DNA of 25,758 nt, taken from NCBI GenBank assembly GCA_036399875.1, contig DASWMG010000292.1:1-25758 (forward strand), written 5' to 3'. Made by a program: the position numbers and the translations under genes. Under the pieces are notes generated by a model that saw nothing but the letters and a program-made list of their open reading frames with translations, made no database searches and was not told the origin of the DNA. Below, piece after piece: positions 12,915 through 20,293 of this stretch (positions are counted from its first letter, which is position 1; every line of letters begins with the position of its first letter). The DNA is from Solirubrobacterales bacterium. GTDB taxonomy: Bacteria > Actinomycetota > Thermoleophilia > Solirubrobacterales > 70-9.

Positions 12915-14431
12915 TCCAGCAGCTTCACGTCGCTGACCTCGACCTGGTAGCGGCCGGCTTCGTCGCGCGCTCCGGAGGGCCGCGTGAACCAGAGCAGGAA
13001 GTAGGTCGAGCGCTGCCGCACCTTGAGATCGATCTCCTGCGTGCCGCCGGCGTCCGTGACCTCGCCGACCGGCTCGCCCCACCCTTCGAGGTCTTCCGGC
13101 GGCCCTTCTGAAGCGGCGTAGACCTTGGCGTCCCAGCCGGGCGTGGGGGAGCGGACGATCATCCGCGCCGGGGTCGAGGGCGAGGAGACGGTCACGTAGA
13201 GGCCGACGCCCGCGTCCGGGCCGGTCTTGATTTCCGCGAACGAGTCGGCGTCGTAGTGCTCGCTCTCCCAGGCGGTGCCGGTCGGGTTGCCGTCGGCGGC
13301 GAAGTCGACCGTGTCGCTGCCCTCCTCGCCGTCGCCCTGCGGGTCGTAGTCGGTGGCGGAGGCGATCTTGACTGGCGTCCCTTTGCCCTCGTTGGCGCCT
13401 CCTCCGCCGATCCCGCTCGAGATCAGCTGCACGGCGAGCAGCGCCCCGCCGGCGACCAGGAGAAGGGCCGCGATCGCCGCCCAGGACAGGCGGGTGCGCC
13501 GCGACAGCTTGCGCCTCGGCGGCGGCACCGCCTCGAGGACGCTGGTCGCCTCACCCGTGGTCGTGCCCGCCCGCGCCGCCTCGACTTCGAGCGCGGTCTC
13601 CAGGTCGTCGACCATCTCGGCGACCTGCTGGTAGCGCTCGGCCGGGTCCTTCGCGGTCGCGCGCTCGACGACTAGCGCCACCGCCGCCGAGACCTCCGGT
13701 CGGCGCCGCTGCACATCGGGCAGCTCCTCGTTGACGTGTTTCATCGCGACGCCGACCTGGCTGTCGGCGCTGAACGGCACCTGGCCGACCAGCATCTCGT
13801 AGAGGACGACCCCGAGCGAGTAGACGTCGGAGCGCGGGTCCACCGGCTTTCCCATCGCCTGCTCGGGGGCGACGTAGTCGGTCGTCCCGAGCACCCGGCC
13901 CGTCGCCGTCACTCCGTCCTGTTCGAGCTGGCGCGAGATGCCGAAGTCGGTCAGCTTGGCGCGGCCGTCCTCGTCGATCAGCACGTTCTGCGGCTTGATG
14001 TCGCGGTGGACCATGTTGCGGGCGTGGGCGACCCCGAGGCCGCGCGCCACCTCGATCGCGTAGGCGATCGAGTCCTGGACGTCGAGCGCGCCCTCGCGCT
14101 TGATCCGCTGCTTGAGCGTCTCGCCCTTGACGTACTCGAAGACGATGTAGGGGTGGCCGCCGTCCTCGCCGGCGTCGATCACCGAGACGACGTTGGGATG
14201 GGAGAGCTTGGCGACGGCGCGCGCCTCCTGGCGAAAGCGCTGCAGTTGGTCCTCCTGCTCGGACATCTCGCGGTGCATCACCTTGACCGCGACCGGCCGG
14301 TCGAGCGTGGCGTCGCGCGCCAGGTAGACGGTCGACATGCCGCCGCTGCCCAGTTTGGCCTCCAGTCGGTAGCGACCGGAGAGCACGGTGCCGATCATCG
14401 AGCTGGAGGGCTGGGAGGGCTGGGTGGTCAT
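12911..14431 (-). CDS. Ser/Thr kinase with TM and an extracellular galactose-binding/discoidin-like beta-sandwich domain
   Basis: GSGGMS, VAVK, HRDIKPQN, DFG and GTTDYVAPE, TM WAAIAALLLVAGGALLAVQLI, and a C-terminal DGNPTGTAWES/GVGLYV/YFLLWFT domain. ATGA overlap with purM. Confidence 0.93.
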   Translation of the reverse strand: MTTQPSQPSSSMIGTVLSGRYRLEAKLGSGGMSTVYLARDATLDRPVAVKVMHREMSEQEDQLQRFRQEARAVAKLSHPNVVSVIDAGEDGGHPYIVFEYVKGETLKQRIKREGALDVQDSIAYAIEVARGLGVAHARNMVHRDIKPQNVLIDEDGRAKLTDFGISRQLEQDGVTATGRVLGTTDYVAPEQAMGKPVDPRSDVYSLGVVLYEMLVGQVPFSADSQVGVAMKHVNEELPDVQRRRPEVSAAVALVVERATAKDPAERYQQVAEMVDDLETALEVEAARAGTTTGEATSVLEAVPPPRRKLSRRTRLSWAAIAALLLVAGGALLAVQLISSGIGGGGANEGKGTPVKIASATDYDPQGDGEEGSDTVDFAADGNPTGTAWESEHYDADSFAEIKTGPDAGVGLYVTVSSPSTPARMIVRSPTPGWDAKVYAASEGPPEDLEGWGEPVGEVTDAGGTQEIDLKVRQRSTYFLLWFTRPSGARDEAGRYQVEVSDVKLLD

Positions 14432-15441
14432 CCCCGCAGGACTTCGCGCGATCCCTCGACGGCCCTGCCAATCGGCTTCGCGTCGGGGTAGTGGCGGCGC
14501 AGAAGTTGCAACGCCGCGGCCTCGTGTCCCGCGCCGACGACGCAGCAGAAGCCGCAGCCCATGTTGAAGACCTCGTACATCTCGCTGTCGGGGACGGAGC
14601 CCCGCTCGCGGATCAGCTCGAAGACCGGCGGCACGGACAGCGGGTCGTCGATCTCGAAGCCGCCCTCGAAGGCGAGCCGCAGCAGGTTGCCGAGGCCGCC
14701 CGAGGTGATGTGGGCGAGGCCGCGCACCTCCACGTCGGAGCGCAGCAGCTCCAGCACGGGCTTGACGTAGATCTCGGTCGGCTCCAGCAGCGCCTCGCCG
14801 AGCGGGCGGCCGAGCCGTCCTTCGGGGTCCTCGCCGAGCTGCAGGCCGTCGAGCGCGGTACGGGCGAGCGTGTAGCCGTTGGAGTGGATGCCCGAGGAGG
14901 GGAGGCCGATCACGACGTCGCCGGGGCGGATCGCCGAGCCGTCGACGATCGCGTCGAGCGCGACCGTGCCGAAGCAGGCGCCGGCGACGTCGAAACCGCG
15001 CACCATGTCGCCGAGCTGCGCCAGCTCTCCGCCCGGGATCTCGACGCCGGCCAGTTCGGCGCCGCGCGCCAGGCCGACGCCGATCTGCTCGCAGACGGCG
15101 GGGTCGGCGCGCTCGATCGCGATGTAGTCGAGCATCGCCAGCGGCTCGGCACCGACGCAGATCACGTCGTTGACGTTCATCGCCACGCAGTCGATGCCGA
15201 CGGTGTCGAAGCGTTCCAGCTGCTCGGCGACGAGCAGCTTGGTGCCGACGCCGTCGGTGGAAAGGGCGATCCCGAGCCGCTCGTCGATCCGGATGACGCT
15301 CGCGTAGTGGCCGGGCAGCGGCACCTGCCGCGACGGACGTCCCAACTCGATCGCCCCGAGCGCCCGGACCAGCCCGGCGACGGCGGAATCGGCCGCGTCC
15401 TGGTCGACCCCGGCCTTCGCGTAGGCGTCCGTATCGCTCAC
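14428..15441 (-). CDS. purM: Phosphoribosylformylglycinamidine cyclo-ligase (AIR synthetase)
   Basis: YAKAGVD, TDGVGTK, DCVAMNVND, GAEP, SSGIHSNGYTL, HITSGG and FNMGCG motifs. Confidence 0.95.
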   Translation of the reverse strand: MSDTDAYAKAGVDQDAADSAVAGLVRALGAIELGRPSRQVPLPGHYASVIRIDERLGIALSTDGVGTKLLVAEQLERFDTVGIDCVAMNVNDVICVGAEPLAMLDYIAIERADPAVCEQIGVGLARGAELAGVEIPGGELAQLGDMVRGFDVAGACFGTVALDAIVDGSAIRPGDVVIGLPSSGIHSNGYTLARTALDGLQLGEDPEGRLGRPLGEALLEPTEIYVKPVLELLRSDVEVRGLAHITSGGLGNLLRLAFEGGFEIDDPLSVPPVFELIRERGSVPDSEMYEVFNMGCGFCCVVGAGHEAAALQLLRRHYPDAKPIGRAVEGSREVLRG

Positions 15442-16781
15442 GTCGGCGATTCTTTCAGGCGCTTCGGTAGGTCGGGCGCGGGCTCGAAGATGTACTCGCG
15501 ACCGACCTTGCGGCGGGTCAAAAGACCATGCCCGGTCAGTCGCGTGAGATCGGACCGGGCCGTCTCATGCGTCACTCGGTGGATGTCGGCGTGACCGCTC
15601 AGCGTGTAGGAGCGATCAGGATGCCTCAGAGCGTCTGAAAGGAGACCGAGTTGGCGGTTGTTGAAGCCGTCCGAGCCGCGTATCAGCTCCTCCACCTCCC
15701 TGATCTCGGCCGTCTTCTTGGCGAGGTATCGATGCAGATCCTCGATTGCTTGCTCGATCGCCTTCAGTTGATGGATCAGGAAGTAAGTCGTGTCTCCCGC
15801 GTCGGTCTCCGTTTCGAGAAAGGCGCGGGCGTATTTCGCCGGCGCGTCACGAAGGATCTTCGAGATCGGTAGGTACTCGACGAGCCAGTAGCCGCTGTTG
15901 CGCATTGACCAGAAGAAGAGGATGCGCGCGGTCCGGCCATTGCCGTCCTCGAACGGGTGGTCATAGGCCAGCCAGAAGTGGAGGAGGATCGCGCGAATCA
16001 CCGGGTGAATGAATCGCTCTGCGTCTTCCCCTTCGTTCGCGAAGTCGCAAAGGAGCCGCAGCCGCTCGGGTAATTGCTCGGCGGGCGGCGGGCGGTGGAT
16101 CGGCCGACCGTCGTCGCGGTCGAATACCGCCACCCTTTCTTCCCTGGGAAGTTGAAGACGTCCGGCGGCCTCGGGGTCGTCGAGCGTCCCCGCGGTCACG
16201 ATCCGGTGCAGCTCCAGGATCGACTCAGGGCTCAGGCGCGTCCCGATGTCCTCCCGCATGAACTGCAGGGCGCGGAAGTTGTTGACGATCATTCGCTCGC
16301 TCCGGTCCTTCGGCGCTCGGCCGCTGCGCAGCAGCTCCTTGGCGACCTGCCGCGACGTGGTGGCGCCCTCGAGTTGGCTTGAACGGATCGCCTCCTCCAT
16401 CAGGGAATTGACGAGGTAGCGCTGCCTCGCGCCGCGCTCGGAGGTGATCACGTCCTCCATCGCCACCTCACCGCTGCAATGCCTATCGACCGAGCGAAGG
16501 CTCTTCAGCACCAGGTCGGGTAGGCCATACCTGAAGGGCTTGCCCTCCGGGTCGCTGAGCGGAAGCTCCCGGAGGCCGCTGTTCCGCTCGAATTTGATCT
16601 TCCACCACCACTCCTGGCGGCTCAGGGTGGGGGGAGGATCCAGCCGCCGCACCTTGTCCCAGTGCAGGTATTGGGTCCGAGTCCTCCGGTCGATCGGCGC
16701 ACTTATGGCAACCATCTTCCGCTCGACCTCGAGATCGGTCTCGAAGATGTCGCCCTGGAAGGGCGGCGGCTCTACATACAC
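15438..16781 (-). CDS. Class II Fic (AMPylation) protein with C-terminal winged HTH
   Basis: Intact Fic motif HPFEDGNGRTAR, N-terminal inhibitory motif SSQLEG (S/T-x-x-x-E-G), and a C-terminal HTH/wing (RVTHETARSDLTRL...RRKVGREYIF). Lower GC than flanks: hand counts 53-58% in 15601-15660 and 15721-15780 versus 75% in 14881-14940. Confidence 0.93.
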   Translation of the reverse strand: MYVEPPPFQGDIFETDLEVERKMVAISAPIDRRTRTQYLHWDKVRRLDPPPTLSRQEWWWKIKFERNSGLRELPLSDPEGKPFRYGLPDLVLKSLRSVDRHCSGEVAMEDVITSERGARQRYLVNSLMEEAIRSSQLEGATTSRQVAKELLRSGRAPKDRSERMIVNNFRALQFMREDIGTRLSPESILELHRIVTAGTLDDPEAAGRLQLPREERVAVFDRDDGRPIHRPPPAEQLPERLRLLCDFANEGEDAERFIHPVIRAILLHFWLAYDHPFEDGNGRTARILFFWSMRNSGYWLVEYLPISKILRDAPAKYARAFLETETDAGDTTYFLIHQLKAIEQAIEDLHRYLAKKTAEIREVEELIRGSDGFNNRQLGLLSDALRHPDRSYTLSGHADIHRVTHETARSDLTRLTGHGLLTRRKVGREYIFEPAPDLPKRLKESPT

Positions 16782-16786
16782 GGGCT

Positions 16787-16855
16787 TTGTCCAAATTCAT
16801 CCAAATTCATCCAAGAACTTGGAAGTCTATCCAAGTCCAGAGATAATTTGGACAA
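16787..16855. repeat. AT-rich direct/inverted repeat array upstream of fic (operator-like)
   Basis: 11-bp perfect inverted repeat TTGTCCAAATT/AATTTGGACAA, tandem TCCAAATTCA x2, internal palindrome TCCAAG-aa-CTTGGA. 25/69 GC (36%). Confidence 0.85.
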
Positions 16856-17665
16856 CTAGCGTCGCAGTTTGCGAAAAACGATCGTGGCCAGCACCGTCCT
16901 GTACGCCGCGTACGGCCACAGCGCCCGGTCGCGCTCGACCAGGCGGATCAGCCGTTGCGAGGCGAGGGTCGAGGCGAAGGAGGTGCCGGCGCCGAGCGCC
17001 ATCGAGCGCCGCAGCTCCGGCGAGGCGCCGCGCTGGTGCAGCCGCACGCCCTTGAGCGCGGTTGCGCCGACGATCACCGGCAGGGCAATCGTGCGCGAGA
17101 GCCGATTCGCCTGCTCGCGGGAGAAGCGTCGCCAGCGGGCCGCGGCGAGCGTGATGCCATTGCGCGAGACGCCCGGCGCGAGGGCGGCCGCCTGGGCGAC
17201 GCCGAGCGCCAGCCCGTCGGCGGGCGTCGCCTCGTGGTCACCTCGCTCCTGGGGCCGCGTGTCGCCGGCCAGCATCGCCGCGGACCCGGCCAGCAGACCG
17301 ACGGCGGTCGCCCTCGGCCCTCCGAGCCGGCGCTCGATCCAGCGCTCGAAGAGGTAGCCGACCGCCGCCGCGGGCAGGAAGGAGAGCGCCAGCAGCAGCG
17401 CCCGGTGGCGGTCGAACGAACGCAGCTCGCTGACGATCTCGTGCCGCTGCCCGATCAGCAGCGCCGCCGCGGTGCCGGCGTGCAGCGCCACCTCGAAGCT
17501 CTTGCGCACCTCCGGGTCGAGCTCCTGCCAGCGCCAGCCCGCCAGCCAGGGGAGCAGGACGATGTGGGCGGAGCTGGAGACGGGCAGCAGCTCTGCCGGG
17601 CCCTGGACGGCGCCGAGGGCGACGGCGCGGCGGCTGGCGATGCGGCCGTCGGCGGGCGCGCTCAA
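16856..17665 (-). CDS. uppP: Undecaprenyl-diphosphate phosphatase (UppP/BacA), 269 aa
   Basis: C-terminal part of the 1115-aa track ORF. TTG 17665 overlaps the dedA stop (TTGA). Motifs VQGPAELLPVSSSAH, FEVALHAGT and PGVSRNG. Confidence 0.92.
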   Translation of the reverse strand: MSAPADGRIASRRAVALGAVQGPAELLPVSSSAHIVLLPWLAGWRWQELDPEVRKSFEVALHAGTAAALLIGQRHEIVSELRSFDRHRALLLALSFLPAAAVGYLFERWIERRLGGPRATAVGLLAGSAAMLAGDTRPQERGDHEATPADGLALGVAQAAALAPGVSRNGITLAAARWRRFSREQANRLSRTIALPVIVGATALKGVRLHQRGASPELRRSMALGAGTSFASTLASQRLIRLVERDRALWPYAAYRTVLATIVFRKLRR

Positions 17666-18354
17666 GCGTCGGCGGCCGGGGAGACCGGATCGGCCGGACG
17701 GTCCTCGCCGACCGGCTCGGCCCCCGGCCCGTTGCCGCGCCGCCGCCTGATCAGCAGGTAGGCGCCGCCGATCAGGATCGCCGCGACGACCGCGTAGTCG
17801 AGGTAGTGCAGGTGGTCGCGCCACTCCTCCCAGTTCTTGCCGACCGACTCGCCGATCAGGCCCAGCATCAGCACCCAGGGGATGCAGCCGAGCAGGGTGA
17901 GCAGGGTGAAGCGCCAGAACGGCATCTTCGCCACCCCGGCGGGCAGCGAGATGAAGGTGCGGATGATCGGCAGCATGCGGGTGAAGAAGACGGTCGCGTC
18001 GCCGTAGCGCTCGAACCAGTCGTCGGCCCACTTGAGGTACCTGGGCGGCAGGTGGATCAGCCGGTTCTTCTCGAGCAGGTCGAGGCGCGCGTAATAGCCG
18101 ACCGCGTAGGCAGCCCAGGACCCGACCAGGTTGCCGAGCACGCCGGCGGTGACGATCCCGAACATCGTCAGGTCGCCGGCGGCGACGCTGGAGCCGGCGA
18201 AGAGCATGATCGCCTCGCTCGGGACCGGCAGGCAGGCGGACTCGAGCGCCATCAGGATGAACACCGCCGGCAGGCCGGTGCTGCTGATGAAGTCCGTCCC
18301 CGCGTTGACGATCGGGTCGAGGAAGAAGTCGGTGACGCTGGCGAGCAGGAGCAT
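17662..18354 (-). CDS. dedA: DedA-family membrane protein
   Basis: ALESACLPVPSE, GNLVGS...Y..G and FFTRMLPIIRTFISLPAG. Start at ATG 18354 (alternative 18369). Confidence 0.93.
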   Translation of the reverse strand: MLLLASVTDFFLDPIVNAGTDFISSTGLPAVFILMALESACLPVPSEAIMLFAGSSVAAGDLTMFGIVTAGVLGNLVGSWAAYAVGYYARLDLLEKNRLIHLPPRYLKWADDWFERYGDATVFFTRMLPIIRTFISLPAGVAKMPFWRFTLLTLLGCIPWVLMLGLIGESVGKNWEEWRDHLHYLDYAVVAAILIGGAYLLIRRRRGNGPGAEPVGEDRPADPVSPAADA

Positions 18355-18367
18355 GCGCGAGCGGGGC

Positions 18368-18400
18368 ATTGTAGGGATCGGCCCTGGCACGAACTAAACT
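18368..18400. promoter_or_regulatory. Back-to-back -10 boxes: TACAAT (minus, 18368-18373) for dedA and TAAACT (plus, 18395-18400) for the capD-like gene
   Basis: The hexamers lie 13 and 12 nt before the respective ATGs in a 58-bp divergent gap. Confidence 0.45.
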
Positions 18401-18412
18401 CGGGCGGTCTAC

Positions 18413-20293
18413 ATGCACCGCTTGAACCACCCCGTCTACCGCAACCGGGTCTTGCAGACGATGGCCGACGCGGCGCTCGTCGCGCTCGCCTTCTACCTCG
18501 CCTTCCGCCTGCGCTTCCTCGACGCGGCGCAGGGCATGCCGCCGCGCTACGAGGAGATGTTCGTGCAGGCGGTCGGCTTCGTCGCCGTCGGCAAGGTCGC
18601 CGTCTTCGCCGCCTTCGGGCTCTACCAGAAGTGGTGGCGCTACGTCAGCGGTCGCGACTTCCTCACGATCGTCCGCGCCGTCGCCGTCGCCAGCGCCCTG
18701 CTCGTCGTCCTCTTCACCGTCCTGCAGCCCTTCGGTCCGGACCTGCCGCGCTCGGTGGCGATCATGGACTTCGTCCTCACCGCGCTCCTGATCGCCGGCG
18801 CCCGCCTCGCCGTGCGGCTGATCGTCGAGCGCCCCGCCCACGGCCACCGGCTCCCCAAGCACGAGGTGCTCGTGGTCGGCGCCGGCTCCGGCGGCCAGAT
18901 GGTCGTCCGCGAGCTGCAGCTCAACCCCAACCTCGGCGCCACCGCGATCGGTTTCCTCGACGACGACGCTCGCAAGCGGGGCATGCGGATGCTGGGGCTG
19001 AAGGTGTTGGGCTGCACCGACGAGATCGAGAGGATCCTCGACGAGACCGAACCCGACGAGGTCGTGATCGCGATCCCCTCGGCGCCGGGGACGCTGCGCG
19101 CCAAGGTCGTTGCCGCCTGCCGCGAGCGCCAGATCCGCGTCCGCACCCTGCCGACCGTCTTCGAGCTGCTGCGCGGCGGCGTCCAGCTCAACAAGCAGCT
19201 GCGCGAGGTCCAGGTCGAGGACGTCCTCGGCCGTGACCCGATCGTGGTCGAGCTCGATCGCGTCGGCGCCTACCTGCGCGACCGCATCGTCCTCGTCACC
19301 GGCGCCGGCGGCTCGATCGGCTCCGAGCTCTGCCGCCAGATCGCCCGCGTCGGCCCGCGCCTGCTGGTGATGCTCGACCACGCCGAGGACAACCTCTTCG
19401 AGATCGAGCGCGAGATGGTCGAGGAGCGCCACTTCTCGAGCGTCGAGGCGGTGCTCGCCGACTGCAAGGAGCCGCACCGGATGCTGGAGACGATGCAGCG
19501 CTTCAAGCCGAGCGTCGTCTTCCACGCCGCCGCCTACAAGCACGTGCCGCTGATGGAGGCCAACCCGCTGGAGGCGGTCCGCAACAACGCGATCGCGACC
19601 CGGGTCGTCACCGACACCGCCGCCGCCTCGGAGGTCGAGCGCTTCGTCCTCGTCTCCACCGACAAGGCGGTCAACCCGAAGACGGTGATGGGGGCCTCGA
19701 AGGCGATGGCGGAGTGGATCGTCGAGGCCGCCGCCCACAAGCACCCCGGCACTCGCTTCGCCAGCGTCCGCTTCGGCAACGTGCTCGCCTCCTCGGGCAG
19801 CGTCGTGCCGATCTTCCGCAGCCAGATCGAGCGCGGCGGGCCGGTCACCGTCACCCACCCCGACATGTGCCGCTACTTCATGACGATCCCGGAGGCCGTG
19901 CAGCTGGTGATCCGCGCCGGCGACATCGGCGCCGGCAAGGGCGAGGTCTTCGTCCTCGACATGGGGGAGCCGGTGAAGATCGTCGACCTGGCGACCAACA
20001 TGATCCGGCTGGCGGGGTACGAGCCCGGCACCGAGATCGCGATCGAGTTCACCCAGCCGCGCCCCGGCGAGAAGCTGCACGAGGAGCTGGTCGGGACCGC
20101 GGAGAGGCTGCAGCCGACGGCGGCGAAGAGGATCCACCGCGCCGTTCGCGCCACCCCGCTCGACCCGGATTGGGTCGAGTCGACGCTGAACTCGCTCGAG
20201 CACCTGGTGCTCGCCGGCGACGAGGCAAATCTGGCCGAGCGGGTCGTCGCGATGATCGCCTCACCGGGCGGCGACGCGGCGGCGGTCGGGTAA
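18413..20293 (+). CDS. Membrane-bound nucleoside-diphosphate sugar 4,6-dehydratase (CapD/PglF/WbpM family)
   Basis: N-terminal TMs, VVGAG domain, VTGAGGSIGSEL, FHAAAYKHVP, STDKA, MGASK (Met-type triad), VRFGNVLASSGSV, RYFMTIPEA and RPGEKLHEEL. Confidence 0.95.
   Translation: MHRLNHPVYRNRVLQTMADAALVALAFYLAFRLRFLDAAQGMPPRYEEMFVQAVGFVAVGKVAVFAAFGLYQKWWRYVSGRDFLTIVRAVAVASALLVVLFTVLQPFGPDLPRSVAIMDFVLTALLIAGARLAVRLIVERPAHGHRLPKHEVLVVGAGSGGQMVVRELQLNPNLGATAIGFLDDDARKRGMRMLGLKVLGCTDEIERILDETEPDEVVIAIPSAPGTLRAKVVAACRERQIRVRTLPTVFELLRGGVQLNKQLREVQVEDVLGRDPIVVELDRVGAYLRDRIVLVTGAGGSIGSELCRQIARVGPRLLVMLDHAEDNLFEIEREMVEERHFSSVEAVLADCKEPHRMLETMQRFKPSVVFHAAAYKHVPLMEANPLEAVRNNAIATRVVTDTAAASEVERFVLVSTDKAVNPKTVMGASKAMAEWIVEAAAHKHPGTRFASVRFGNVLASSGSVVPIFRSQIERGGPVTVTHPDMCRYFMTIPEAVQLVIRAGDIGAGKGEVFVLDMGEPVKIVDLATNMIRLAGYEPGTEIAIEFTQPRPGEKLHEELVGTAERLQPTAAKRIHRAVRATPLDPDWVESTLNSLEHLVLAGDEANLAERVVAMIASPGGDAAAVG

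Follow-up and report, generated by a model that had tools for sequence, protein, structure and literature searches.

The 69-bp block in front of the fic gene is very probably the fic promoter together with an operator for the DNA-binding tail of Fic itself. Judging from the sequence and its relatives, we consider it likely that dimeric Fic regulates this promoter autogenously. The most likely sign of this regulation is repression, as suggested by the analogy with CccR and by the positions of the sites. An earlier note on this DNA had proposed an autoregulatory site for the Fic wHTH, and our analysis supports this proposal: the array follows fic, and its half-site co-varies with the recognition helix of the protein.

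The window, that is, the whole stretch of DNA analyzed (25,758 nucleotides), is the entire 25.8-kb contig of a 2.0-Mb draft genome (347 contigs, 70% GC), whose nearest relatives are Solirubrobacterales/Thermoleophilia MAGs from soil. The locus is present in three soil DNA sequencing runs, and no RNA run is among the matches listed. On the minus strand the gene order is uppP/bacA, fic, purM, and a Ser/Thr kinase gene. The features discussed below are as follows.

16856..17680, minus strand: uppP/bacA, undecaprenyl-diphosphate phosphatase; its stop abuts the array, and the position of its true start is approximate
16787..16855, minus strand: putative promoter-operator array, 69 bp, 36% GC, recognized from sequence and kept at homologous loci
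16848..16852, minus strand: distal half-site S1, TCCAA on the coding strand, -71, within the inverted-repeat arm 16845-16855
16836..16840, minus strand: degenerate half-site, CTGGA on the coding strand, -59
16830..16834, minus strand: half-site S2, TTGGA on the coding strand, -53, immediately 5′ of the -10 hexamer
16824..16829, minus strand: -10-like hexamer TAGACT, -48 to -43, with a putative promoter role
16810..16823, minus strand: proximal palindrome TCCAAG-tt-CTTGGA with half-sites S3 (-42) and S4 (-33)
16800..16804, minus strand: half-site S5, TTGGA, -23, 10 bp from S4
16790..16794, minus strand: half-site S6, TTGGA, -13, 10 bp from S5, within the inverted-repeat arm 16787-16797
15438..16781, minus strand: fic, GTG start, 447 aa, class II Fic
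15474..15668, minus strand: segment within fic, taken from the AF2 model, with Foldseek matches to SoFic, CccR, and CbFic2
15531..15572, minus strand: recognition-helix codons, residues 404-417 (T-H-E-T-A-R...), of which 405-406 co-vary with the half-site
14428..15441, minus strand: purM, downstream of the array and fic and co-directional with them

Both uppP and fic lie on the minus strand, separated by 74 bp. The uppP stop codon TAG occupies 16858-16856, and the array runs from the adjoining base to a point 5 bp short of the GTG of fic (16781). A 1115-aa uppP ORF (16856-20203, minus strand) was rejected as an over-extension, an artifact of high GC; only its last ~250 residues match BacA/UppP. 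The remainder of this ORF is spanned by a polysaccharide-biosynthesis gene (Polysacc_synt_2) on the plus strand at 18413-20293.

The block (16787-16855) has a GC content of 36.2%, against 71.1% for the window. On the plus strand TCCAA occurs at 16790, 16800, 16810, and 16830, with TTGGA at 16819 and 16848 and TCCAG at 16836; the block thus holds six TCCAA/TTGGA words, three of them at 10-bp steps. Its termini are the two arms of a perfect 11-bp inverted repeat, TTGTCCAAATT, at 16787-16797 and 16845-16855. The palindrome TCCAAG-aa-CTTGGA is found at 16810-16823, and the -10-like hexamer TAGACT is read on the minus strand at 16829-16824. All of the words listed in the earlier note, the inverted repeat, the palindrome, TAGACT, the GC content, and the borders are present as it had described them. 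Read along the coding strand and numbered from the GTG, the order is TCCAA (-71), CTGGA (-59), TTGGA (-53), TAGACT (-48 to -43), TCCAA (-42), and TTGGA (-33, -23, and -13). The clustering of words in the array exceeds chance: 6 of the 15 TCCAA words of the window fall inside 63 bp, and when the 69-mer was shuffled 20,000 times with its dinucleotides kept, the word count never exceeded five. In its own 2.0-Mb draft genome the array is single-copy.

Conservation of this arrangement was traced by scanning 185,579 species genomes, which gave 80 loci encoding proteins 50-72% identical. Nearly all loci of the Thermoleophilia type carry five to nine TCCAA/TTGGA words in the last 110 bp 5′ of the start codon. 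The positions of these words are regular. At the 52 loci whose start codon is secure, the preferred positions relative to this codon are -40 for TCCAA and -32, -22, and -11 for TTGGA, and a second unit has its peaks at -88, -80, -70, and -59. Consecutive proximal TTGGA words are spaced by 10 bp in 79 cases and by 11 bp in 45 (together 124 of 131), while the proximal TCCAA stands exactly 40 nt from the start codon in 43 of 75 loci. Immediately 5′ of the proximal TCCAA the related loci have a -10-like element of the type GCTAnAAT; TAGACT in the window corresponds to this element, which is conserved in 75 related loci. The 10-bp phasing and the -10 role that had been suggested for TAGACT are therefore both kept in relatives, as 10/11-bp steps and as a -10-like element. 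The half-sites overlap their own putative core promoter, since they flank the -10-like hexamer and occupy the 40 nt up to the start codon. The transcription start is predicted to lie inside or just 5′ of the proximal palindrome, some 6-8 nt beyond TAGACT.

No good -35 hexamer matching TAGACT was found in the window, and a simple sigma-70/terminator scan gave no promoter on the fic strand. A sigma-70-like match, TTGGAA-17-GATAAT, is present at 16819-16847 on the plus strand, opposite to fic and reading antisense into uppP; visual comparison with the nearest relatives, L001 and L002, showed no conservation of this match.

Two layouts of the array can be distinguished. In the first, a unit of ~38 bp is directly duplicated on either side of the -10 element. 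The second is a mirror, in which three TCCAA words and a TTGGA are followed by the -10 element and then by a TCCAA and three TTGGA words. The mirror layout, with a decayed upstream half, is that of the window and of its closest relatives (L001, L002, and L008), and one locus, L012, has only a single operator unit. The two 38-bp units of a locus resemble each other closely. In 33 loci (L004-L034 and others), compared over the 130 bp 5′ of fic, distal and proximal units of the same locus are on average identical at 35.4 of 38 positions, and units of different loci at 31.5 of 38. At the 16 variable columns the paired units agree in 88% of cases, with 61% expected, and even "defective" cores such as TGGGA and CTGGA are mirrored in both units. 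This pattern suggests that the two operator units evolve in concert, by ongoing gene conversion or slippage.

Which protein reads these words? More distant homologues carry other words at the same place, and the half-site was therefore compared with the residues of the recognition helix. The distant homologues came from Chloroflexota, Rubrobacteraceae, Planctomycetota, and Acidimicrobiales genomes; six loci from Chloroflexota genomes (four of which entered the table) and 80 metagenome loci were added. The resulting co-variation table comprises 156 homologues, whose residues 405-406 and half-sites are paired as follows.

HE: nTCCAA, 81 of 82
YQ: TACTA (TACTAA), 28 of 37, the other nine unclear and none of another class
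YA: TATC(A/G), 5 of 5
YD: TACCA (TACCAA), 3 of 3
R/H/P/S/T-Q and LM: (G/T)GCTA (GCTAA with R/H/P/S-Q), 14 of 17
NQ: TCCTA, 2 of 3

The first line answers the expectation of the earlier note that TCCAA arrays should precede close Fic homologues: the array layout stands upstream of 81 of the 82 homologues with the recognition-helix residues His405-Glu406. On a FastTree phylogeny, however, the HE/TCCAA loci form a single clade of 81 and count as one event, so that it is the smaller classes that give the co-variation its statistical weight. Here all 6 phylogenetically independent pairs link Tyr405 to a TA prefix (p 0.03), and Gln406 goes with a CTA core in 6-7 concordant independent pairs and none opposite (p about 0.02). 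Ala406 with TATC (4 of 4 independent pairs) and Asp406 with TACCA (3 of 3) behave in the same way. The tree behind these counts was built with both helix columns included (2 of 448 columns). For the N-terminal domain no comparable pattern with the half-site was seen. The co-variation of the half-site with the first residues of the recognition helix points to the Fic wHTH as the reader of the sites.

The geometry of the sites differs between classes. In the non-TCCAA classes most sites (65 of 82 pairs) are palindromic with 11 nt between the half-sites, from which it follows that the TCCAA clade switched the geometry of its site as well as the word. In the TCCAA class the half-sites follow each other at 8, 10, and 11 bp center-to-center, unlike these N11 palindromes and unlike the N26 operator of CccR. 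Most other non-TCCAA classes have two palindromes with the 11-nt spacer. The non-TCCAA relatives L077/L105, L125, and L143 have instead three direct repeats, GCTGCTAA, at 10-11 bp, followed by an inverted TTAGCAGC; this "three plus one" is the upstream layout of the mirror-type TCCAA arrays. A -35 hexamer inside the palindrome spacers of the non-TCCAA classes was considered and rejected, as a TTGACA-like word matching at 5 of 6 positions was present in only 9 of 52 loci.

The genomic context of the array bears on the question of whether some other host transcription factor or a nucleoid protein controls fic through this operator, with the Fic wHTH binding elsewhere. The AT-rich block in a 71% GC genome is typical of the targets of nucleoid-associated proteins. 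Nevertheless, the array travels with fic and not with its neighbors. While ~46 loci share the order uppP-fic-purM, the other 34 stand in differing contexts, with no more than three loci per family of flanking ORFs, and most of them retain the repeat array. In five complete genomes (2.5-2.7 Mb) the pattern TTGGA-N5-6-TTGGA occurs two to four times at the fic promoter, and outside it there are only 1-3 isolated matches per genome, a number near that of the control with the reversed pattern (0-1). A recurrence of the array without fic, which the earlier note had regarded as an argument against its proposal, was looked for in these five genomes, and none was seen away from fic. A host factor would have to account for an array that is restricted to fic in the complete genomes and accompanies it into 34 unrelated contexts, and for a half-site that tracks the Fic recognition helix in several independent lineages. 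We regard this explanation as improbable.

A second explanation, to which we give an equally small chance, places the function mainly in the RNA: a hairpin of the 5′ UTR or of uppP read-through, or UUGGAG words serving as Shine-Dalgarno decoys or sites, would control the mRNA of fic and perhaps of purM. The minus-strand RNA of 16770-16860 does fold at -29.6 kcal/mol (z -3.9). Furthermore, the last repeat is usually TTGGAG, which supplies a GGAG 5 nt 5′ of the start codon in most relatives; GGAG is found no more than 20 nt from the start codon in 61 of 81 relatives, mostly within this last repeat. But the hairpin is a by-product of inverted symmetry, and roughly every second relative has a direct and not an inverted copy as its upstream unit. 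Since the inverted symmetry is not kept at these direct-copy loci, a long RNA hairpin is rejected as the primary function. The words 5′ of the -10 element stand in either orientation, which fits recognition of double-stranded DNA, and the other half-site classes use words without GGA. An Rfam scan of 16500-17100 with E values up to 1 gave no match. Besides its probable role as a DNA operator, the downstream unit, which lies in the predicted 5′ UTR, may have an additional role at the RNA level.

The gene fic together with its array is an insertion, because in five genomes of the same family without fic (L195-L199) uppP adjoins purM directly, and at least two of these genomes (L195 and L199) show an ATGA in which the uppP stop and the start of purM overlap. 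The inserted segment of ~1.42 kb (15438-16858) falls precisely between uppP and purM. The purM start of the window has stayed in place but now overlaps the fic stop, the GTG of purM and the stop sharing GTGA at 15441-15438. The distribution of fic is very patchy, and whole-genome searches always found it in single copy: of 151 genomes sampled from the window's order, 4 carry it, while the 38 others that belong to the family of the window all lack it; among 401 genomes sampled from Chloroflexota, 7 carry it. At syntenic loci the identity is ~65% for Fic, ~77% for UppP, and ~83% for PurM, and fic therefore evolves faster than its neighbors.

The alternative of the earlier note was a recombination or mobile-element end scar; the array would then be an end scar, terminal inverted repeat, or recombination site of the mobile unit that brought fic in. 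The insertion is real, the GC content of fic is lower than that of its neighbors, and the array bears the 11-bp terminal inverted repeat. Yet the fic/purM junction at the other end of the insertion has no TCCAA array, and in six genomes the array is single-copy; with neither a matching repeat nor a second copy the alternative is unsupported. Moreover, the positions of the words are set by the start codon and the -10 element and not by the border of the insertion, and the words change with the recognition helix of the protein, so that a mobile-element scar is very improbable. Least credible of all are functionless slippage repeats in an AT-rich spacer, for, although the near-identical 38-bp pairs within each of the 33 loci indicate that recombination or slippage does act, the words, their spacing, and their distance from the start codon are kept across proteins 50-70% identical, and no shuffle in 20,000 reached the observed word count.

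The protein itself has the features of a class II Fic AMP-transferase with a C-terminal wHTH. The catalytic motif HPFx[D/E]GN[G/K]R is found as H275-P-F-E-D-G-N-G-R283, with H275, P276, F277, D279, and G280-R283 invariant in 38 homologues, and Pfam Fic matches with E 9e-18. The class II inhibitory motif S134-S-Q-L-E138-G139 lies on the same chain, N-terminal to the core, and is invariant in the alignment; the AF2 model places it in helix 116-137. This model (pLDDT 86.8) comprises an N-terminal domain (1-105), the Fic core, and a C-terminal wHTH with helices 375-386, 394-401, and 405-417 and a beta wing 421-434. The N-terminal domain (16466-16781) is specific to the family and has invariant Y38, H40, W41, W59, and R66. 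When residues 1-112 were folded alone (pLDDT 78), no convincing match was obtained among 48,161 PDB representatives; the best Z was 3.6, and the matches at or below this value are homeodomain-like three-helix bundles.

A dimer of Fic is also supported by modeling. The homodimer model scored 0.48, with 0.00 for the best of three controls, and the mark used for this score is reached by 20 of 30 proteins solved as same-chain pairs and by 1 of 23 solved single. Between runs, at least 46% of the contacts are shared and the partner pLDDT does not fall below 76; the predicted interface consists of helix 87-105, which is the last helix of the N-terminal domain, and residues 252-260. The model supports self-association of Fic, with the reservation that its pass may stem from likeness to solved Fic dimers.

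Among the best Foldseek matches are the M. marinum Fic 7cb8, SoFic (3eqx/3zcn), CccR (7xux), and CbFic2 (8cil), and the alignments with the last three extend over ~365-370 columns. The PADLOC SoFic model matches residues 120-433 with 2.3e-39. Pfam SoFic-like_C gives only E 0.028, under its cut-off, and the NCBIfam SoFic equivalog NF046030 gives 37.2 bits where the cut-off is 550. So far under this cut-off, the window Fic is a distant relative of SoFic and not its orthologue. A phmmer search of residues 330-447 against PDB sequences returned spurious matches only, and for this reason the helix residues of CccR and SoFic are absent from the co-variation table. The branch to which the window Fic belongs is large: a protein search found at least 7,988 related proteins at E <1e-10, mostly from soil Thermoleophilia.

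The principle of autoregulation is already published for two Fic proteins, and the precedent that the earlier note named for binding to the own promoter is real. In Yersinia pseudotuberculosis, CccR represses its own promoter via inverted repeats near the -35/-10 boxes (PMC9755527). The window Fic shares with it (PDB 7XUX; Foldseek E 4e-10) the class II Fic core, the SxxxEG motif, the C-terminal HTH, and, by its model, the dimer. However, the identity of the two proteins is ~18%, and the window Fic has an extra N-terminal domain of 105 residues. Their operators also differ: that of CccR consists of two inverted 10-bp repeats separated by 26 bp, while the window has six to eight copies of a 5-bp word, phased by 10-11 bp on both sides of the -10 hexamer. 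Finally, CccR is an effector secreted by the T6SS, and no sign of secretion was seen for the window Fic.

SoFic of Shewanella oneidensis (3EQX/3ZCN), a defense gene in PADLOC, resembles the window Fic in its inhibitory helix, Fic core, and wHTH. Its dimers bind within the 100 bp 5′ of its own start codon (bioRxiv 10.64898/2026.07.09.737422); its operator is not defined at the base level. A small antitoxin gene like AS1 (PMC12249575) is absent beside the window fic, where purM follows directly. In CbFic2 of Coxiella burnetii generic double-stranded DNA drives dimerization and turns the AMPylase into a deAMPylase (PMC10628234). Of the solved structures, this protein (8CIL) gives the best match by sequence profile (6e-15), and it likewise has a wHTH-dependent DNA-binding domain. 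It was assayed with generic DNA, whereas the putative sites of the window are sequence-specific and private to its own promoter. Toxin-antitoxin systems of types II and IV (for instance, the AbiEi wHTH on the abiE operator) are similar in that a wHTH on repeated sites feeds back negatively on the promoter of an enzyme that inhibits growth. In contrast to them, the window Fic unites the DNA-binding domain and the toxin-like enzyme in one polypeptide and has an internal inhibitory helix in place of a separate antitoxin.

Taking the array as an operator for Fic, we can propose how it would work. The recognition helix of the Fic wHTH (T404-H405-E406-T407...) would bind the half-sites. Spaced by one helical turn, the sites would accommodate several dimers, upstream as well as downstream of the -10 hexamer. 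These dimers would also span the predicted transcription start, by which RNA polymerase would be blocked. Through this negative feedback, the amount of an enzyme that may be toxic would stay low and buffered.

A wider version of this proposal can also be formulated, though we think it unlikely. Fic bound to the phased sites would then also gate or roadblock the read-through from uppP into purM and the kinase gene, and the operator DNA, as in the case of CbFic2, might in turn keep Fic dimeric, non-toxic, and deAMPylating. Such a roadblock is possible because fic and its operator stand at the uppP/purM junction, with the fic stop overlapping the purM start. If this were true, purine synthesis and expression of the kinase would be tied to the occupancy of the operator by DNA-bound Fic, and perhaps to AMPylation or the nucleotide state. 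As a separate part of this wider version, the pairing of HE, YQ, YA, YD, and RQ at positions 405-406 with five half-site variants could serve as a usable recognition code for this wHTH family.

The array does not reveal a new kind of mechanism. What is added here to the autoregulation of CccR and SoFic is a Thermoleophilia-centered branch, a multi-site, helically phased operator, and a table relating residues to half-sites. For a large, uncharacterized branch of Fic-wHTH proteins this amounts to a base-level model of the operator, with half-sites, a -10-like hexamer, and a fixed distance from the start codon. It also yields a testable rule that connects two residues of the recognition helix with the sequence of the half-site. 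The locus further shows that Fic-wHTH genes can reside stably within a housekeeping operon (uppP-purM). On this reading autoregulation, shown for CccR and suggested for SoFic, would extend from two proteobacterial cases to a family-wide and apparently co-evolving principle.
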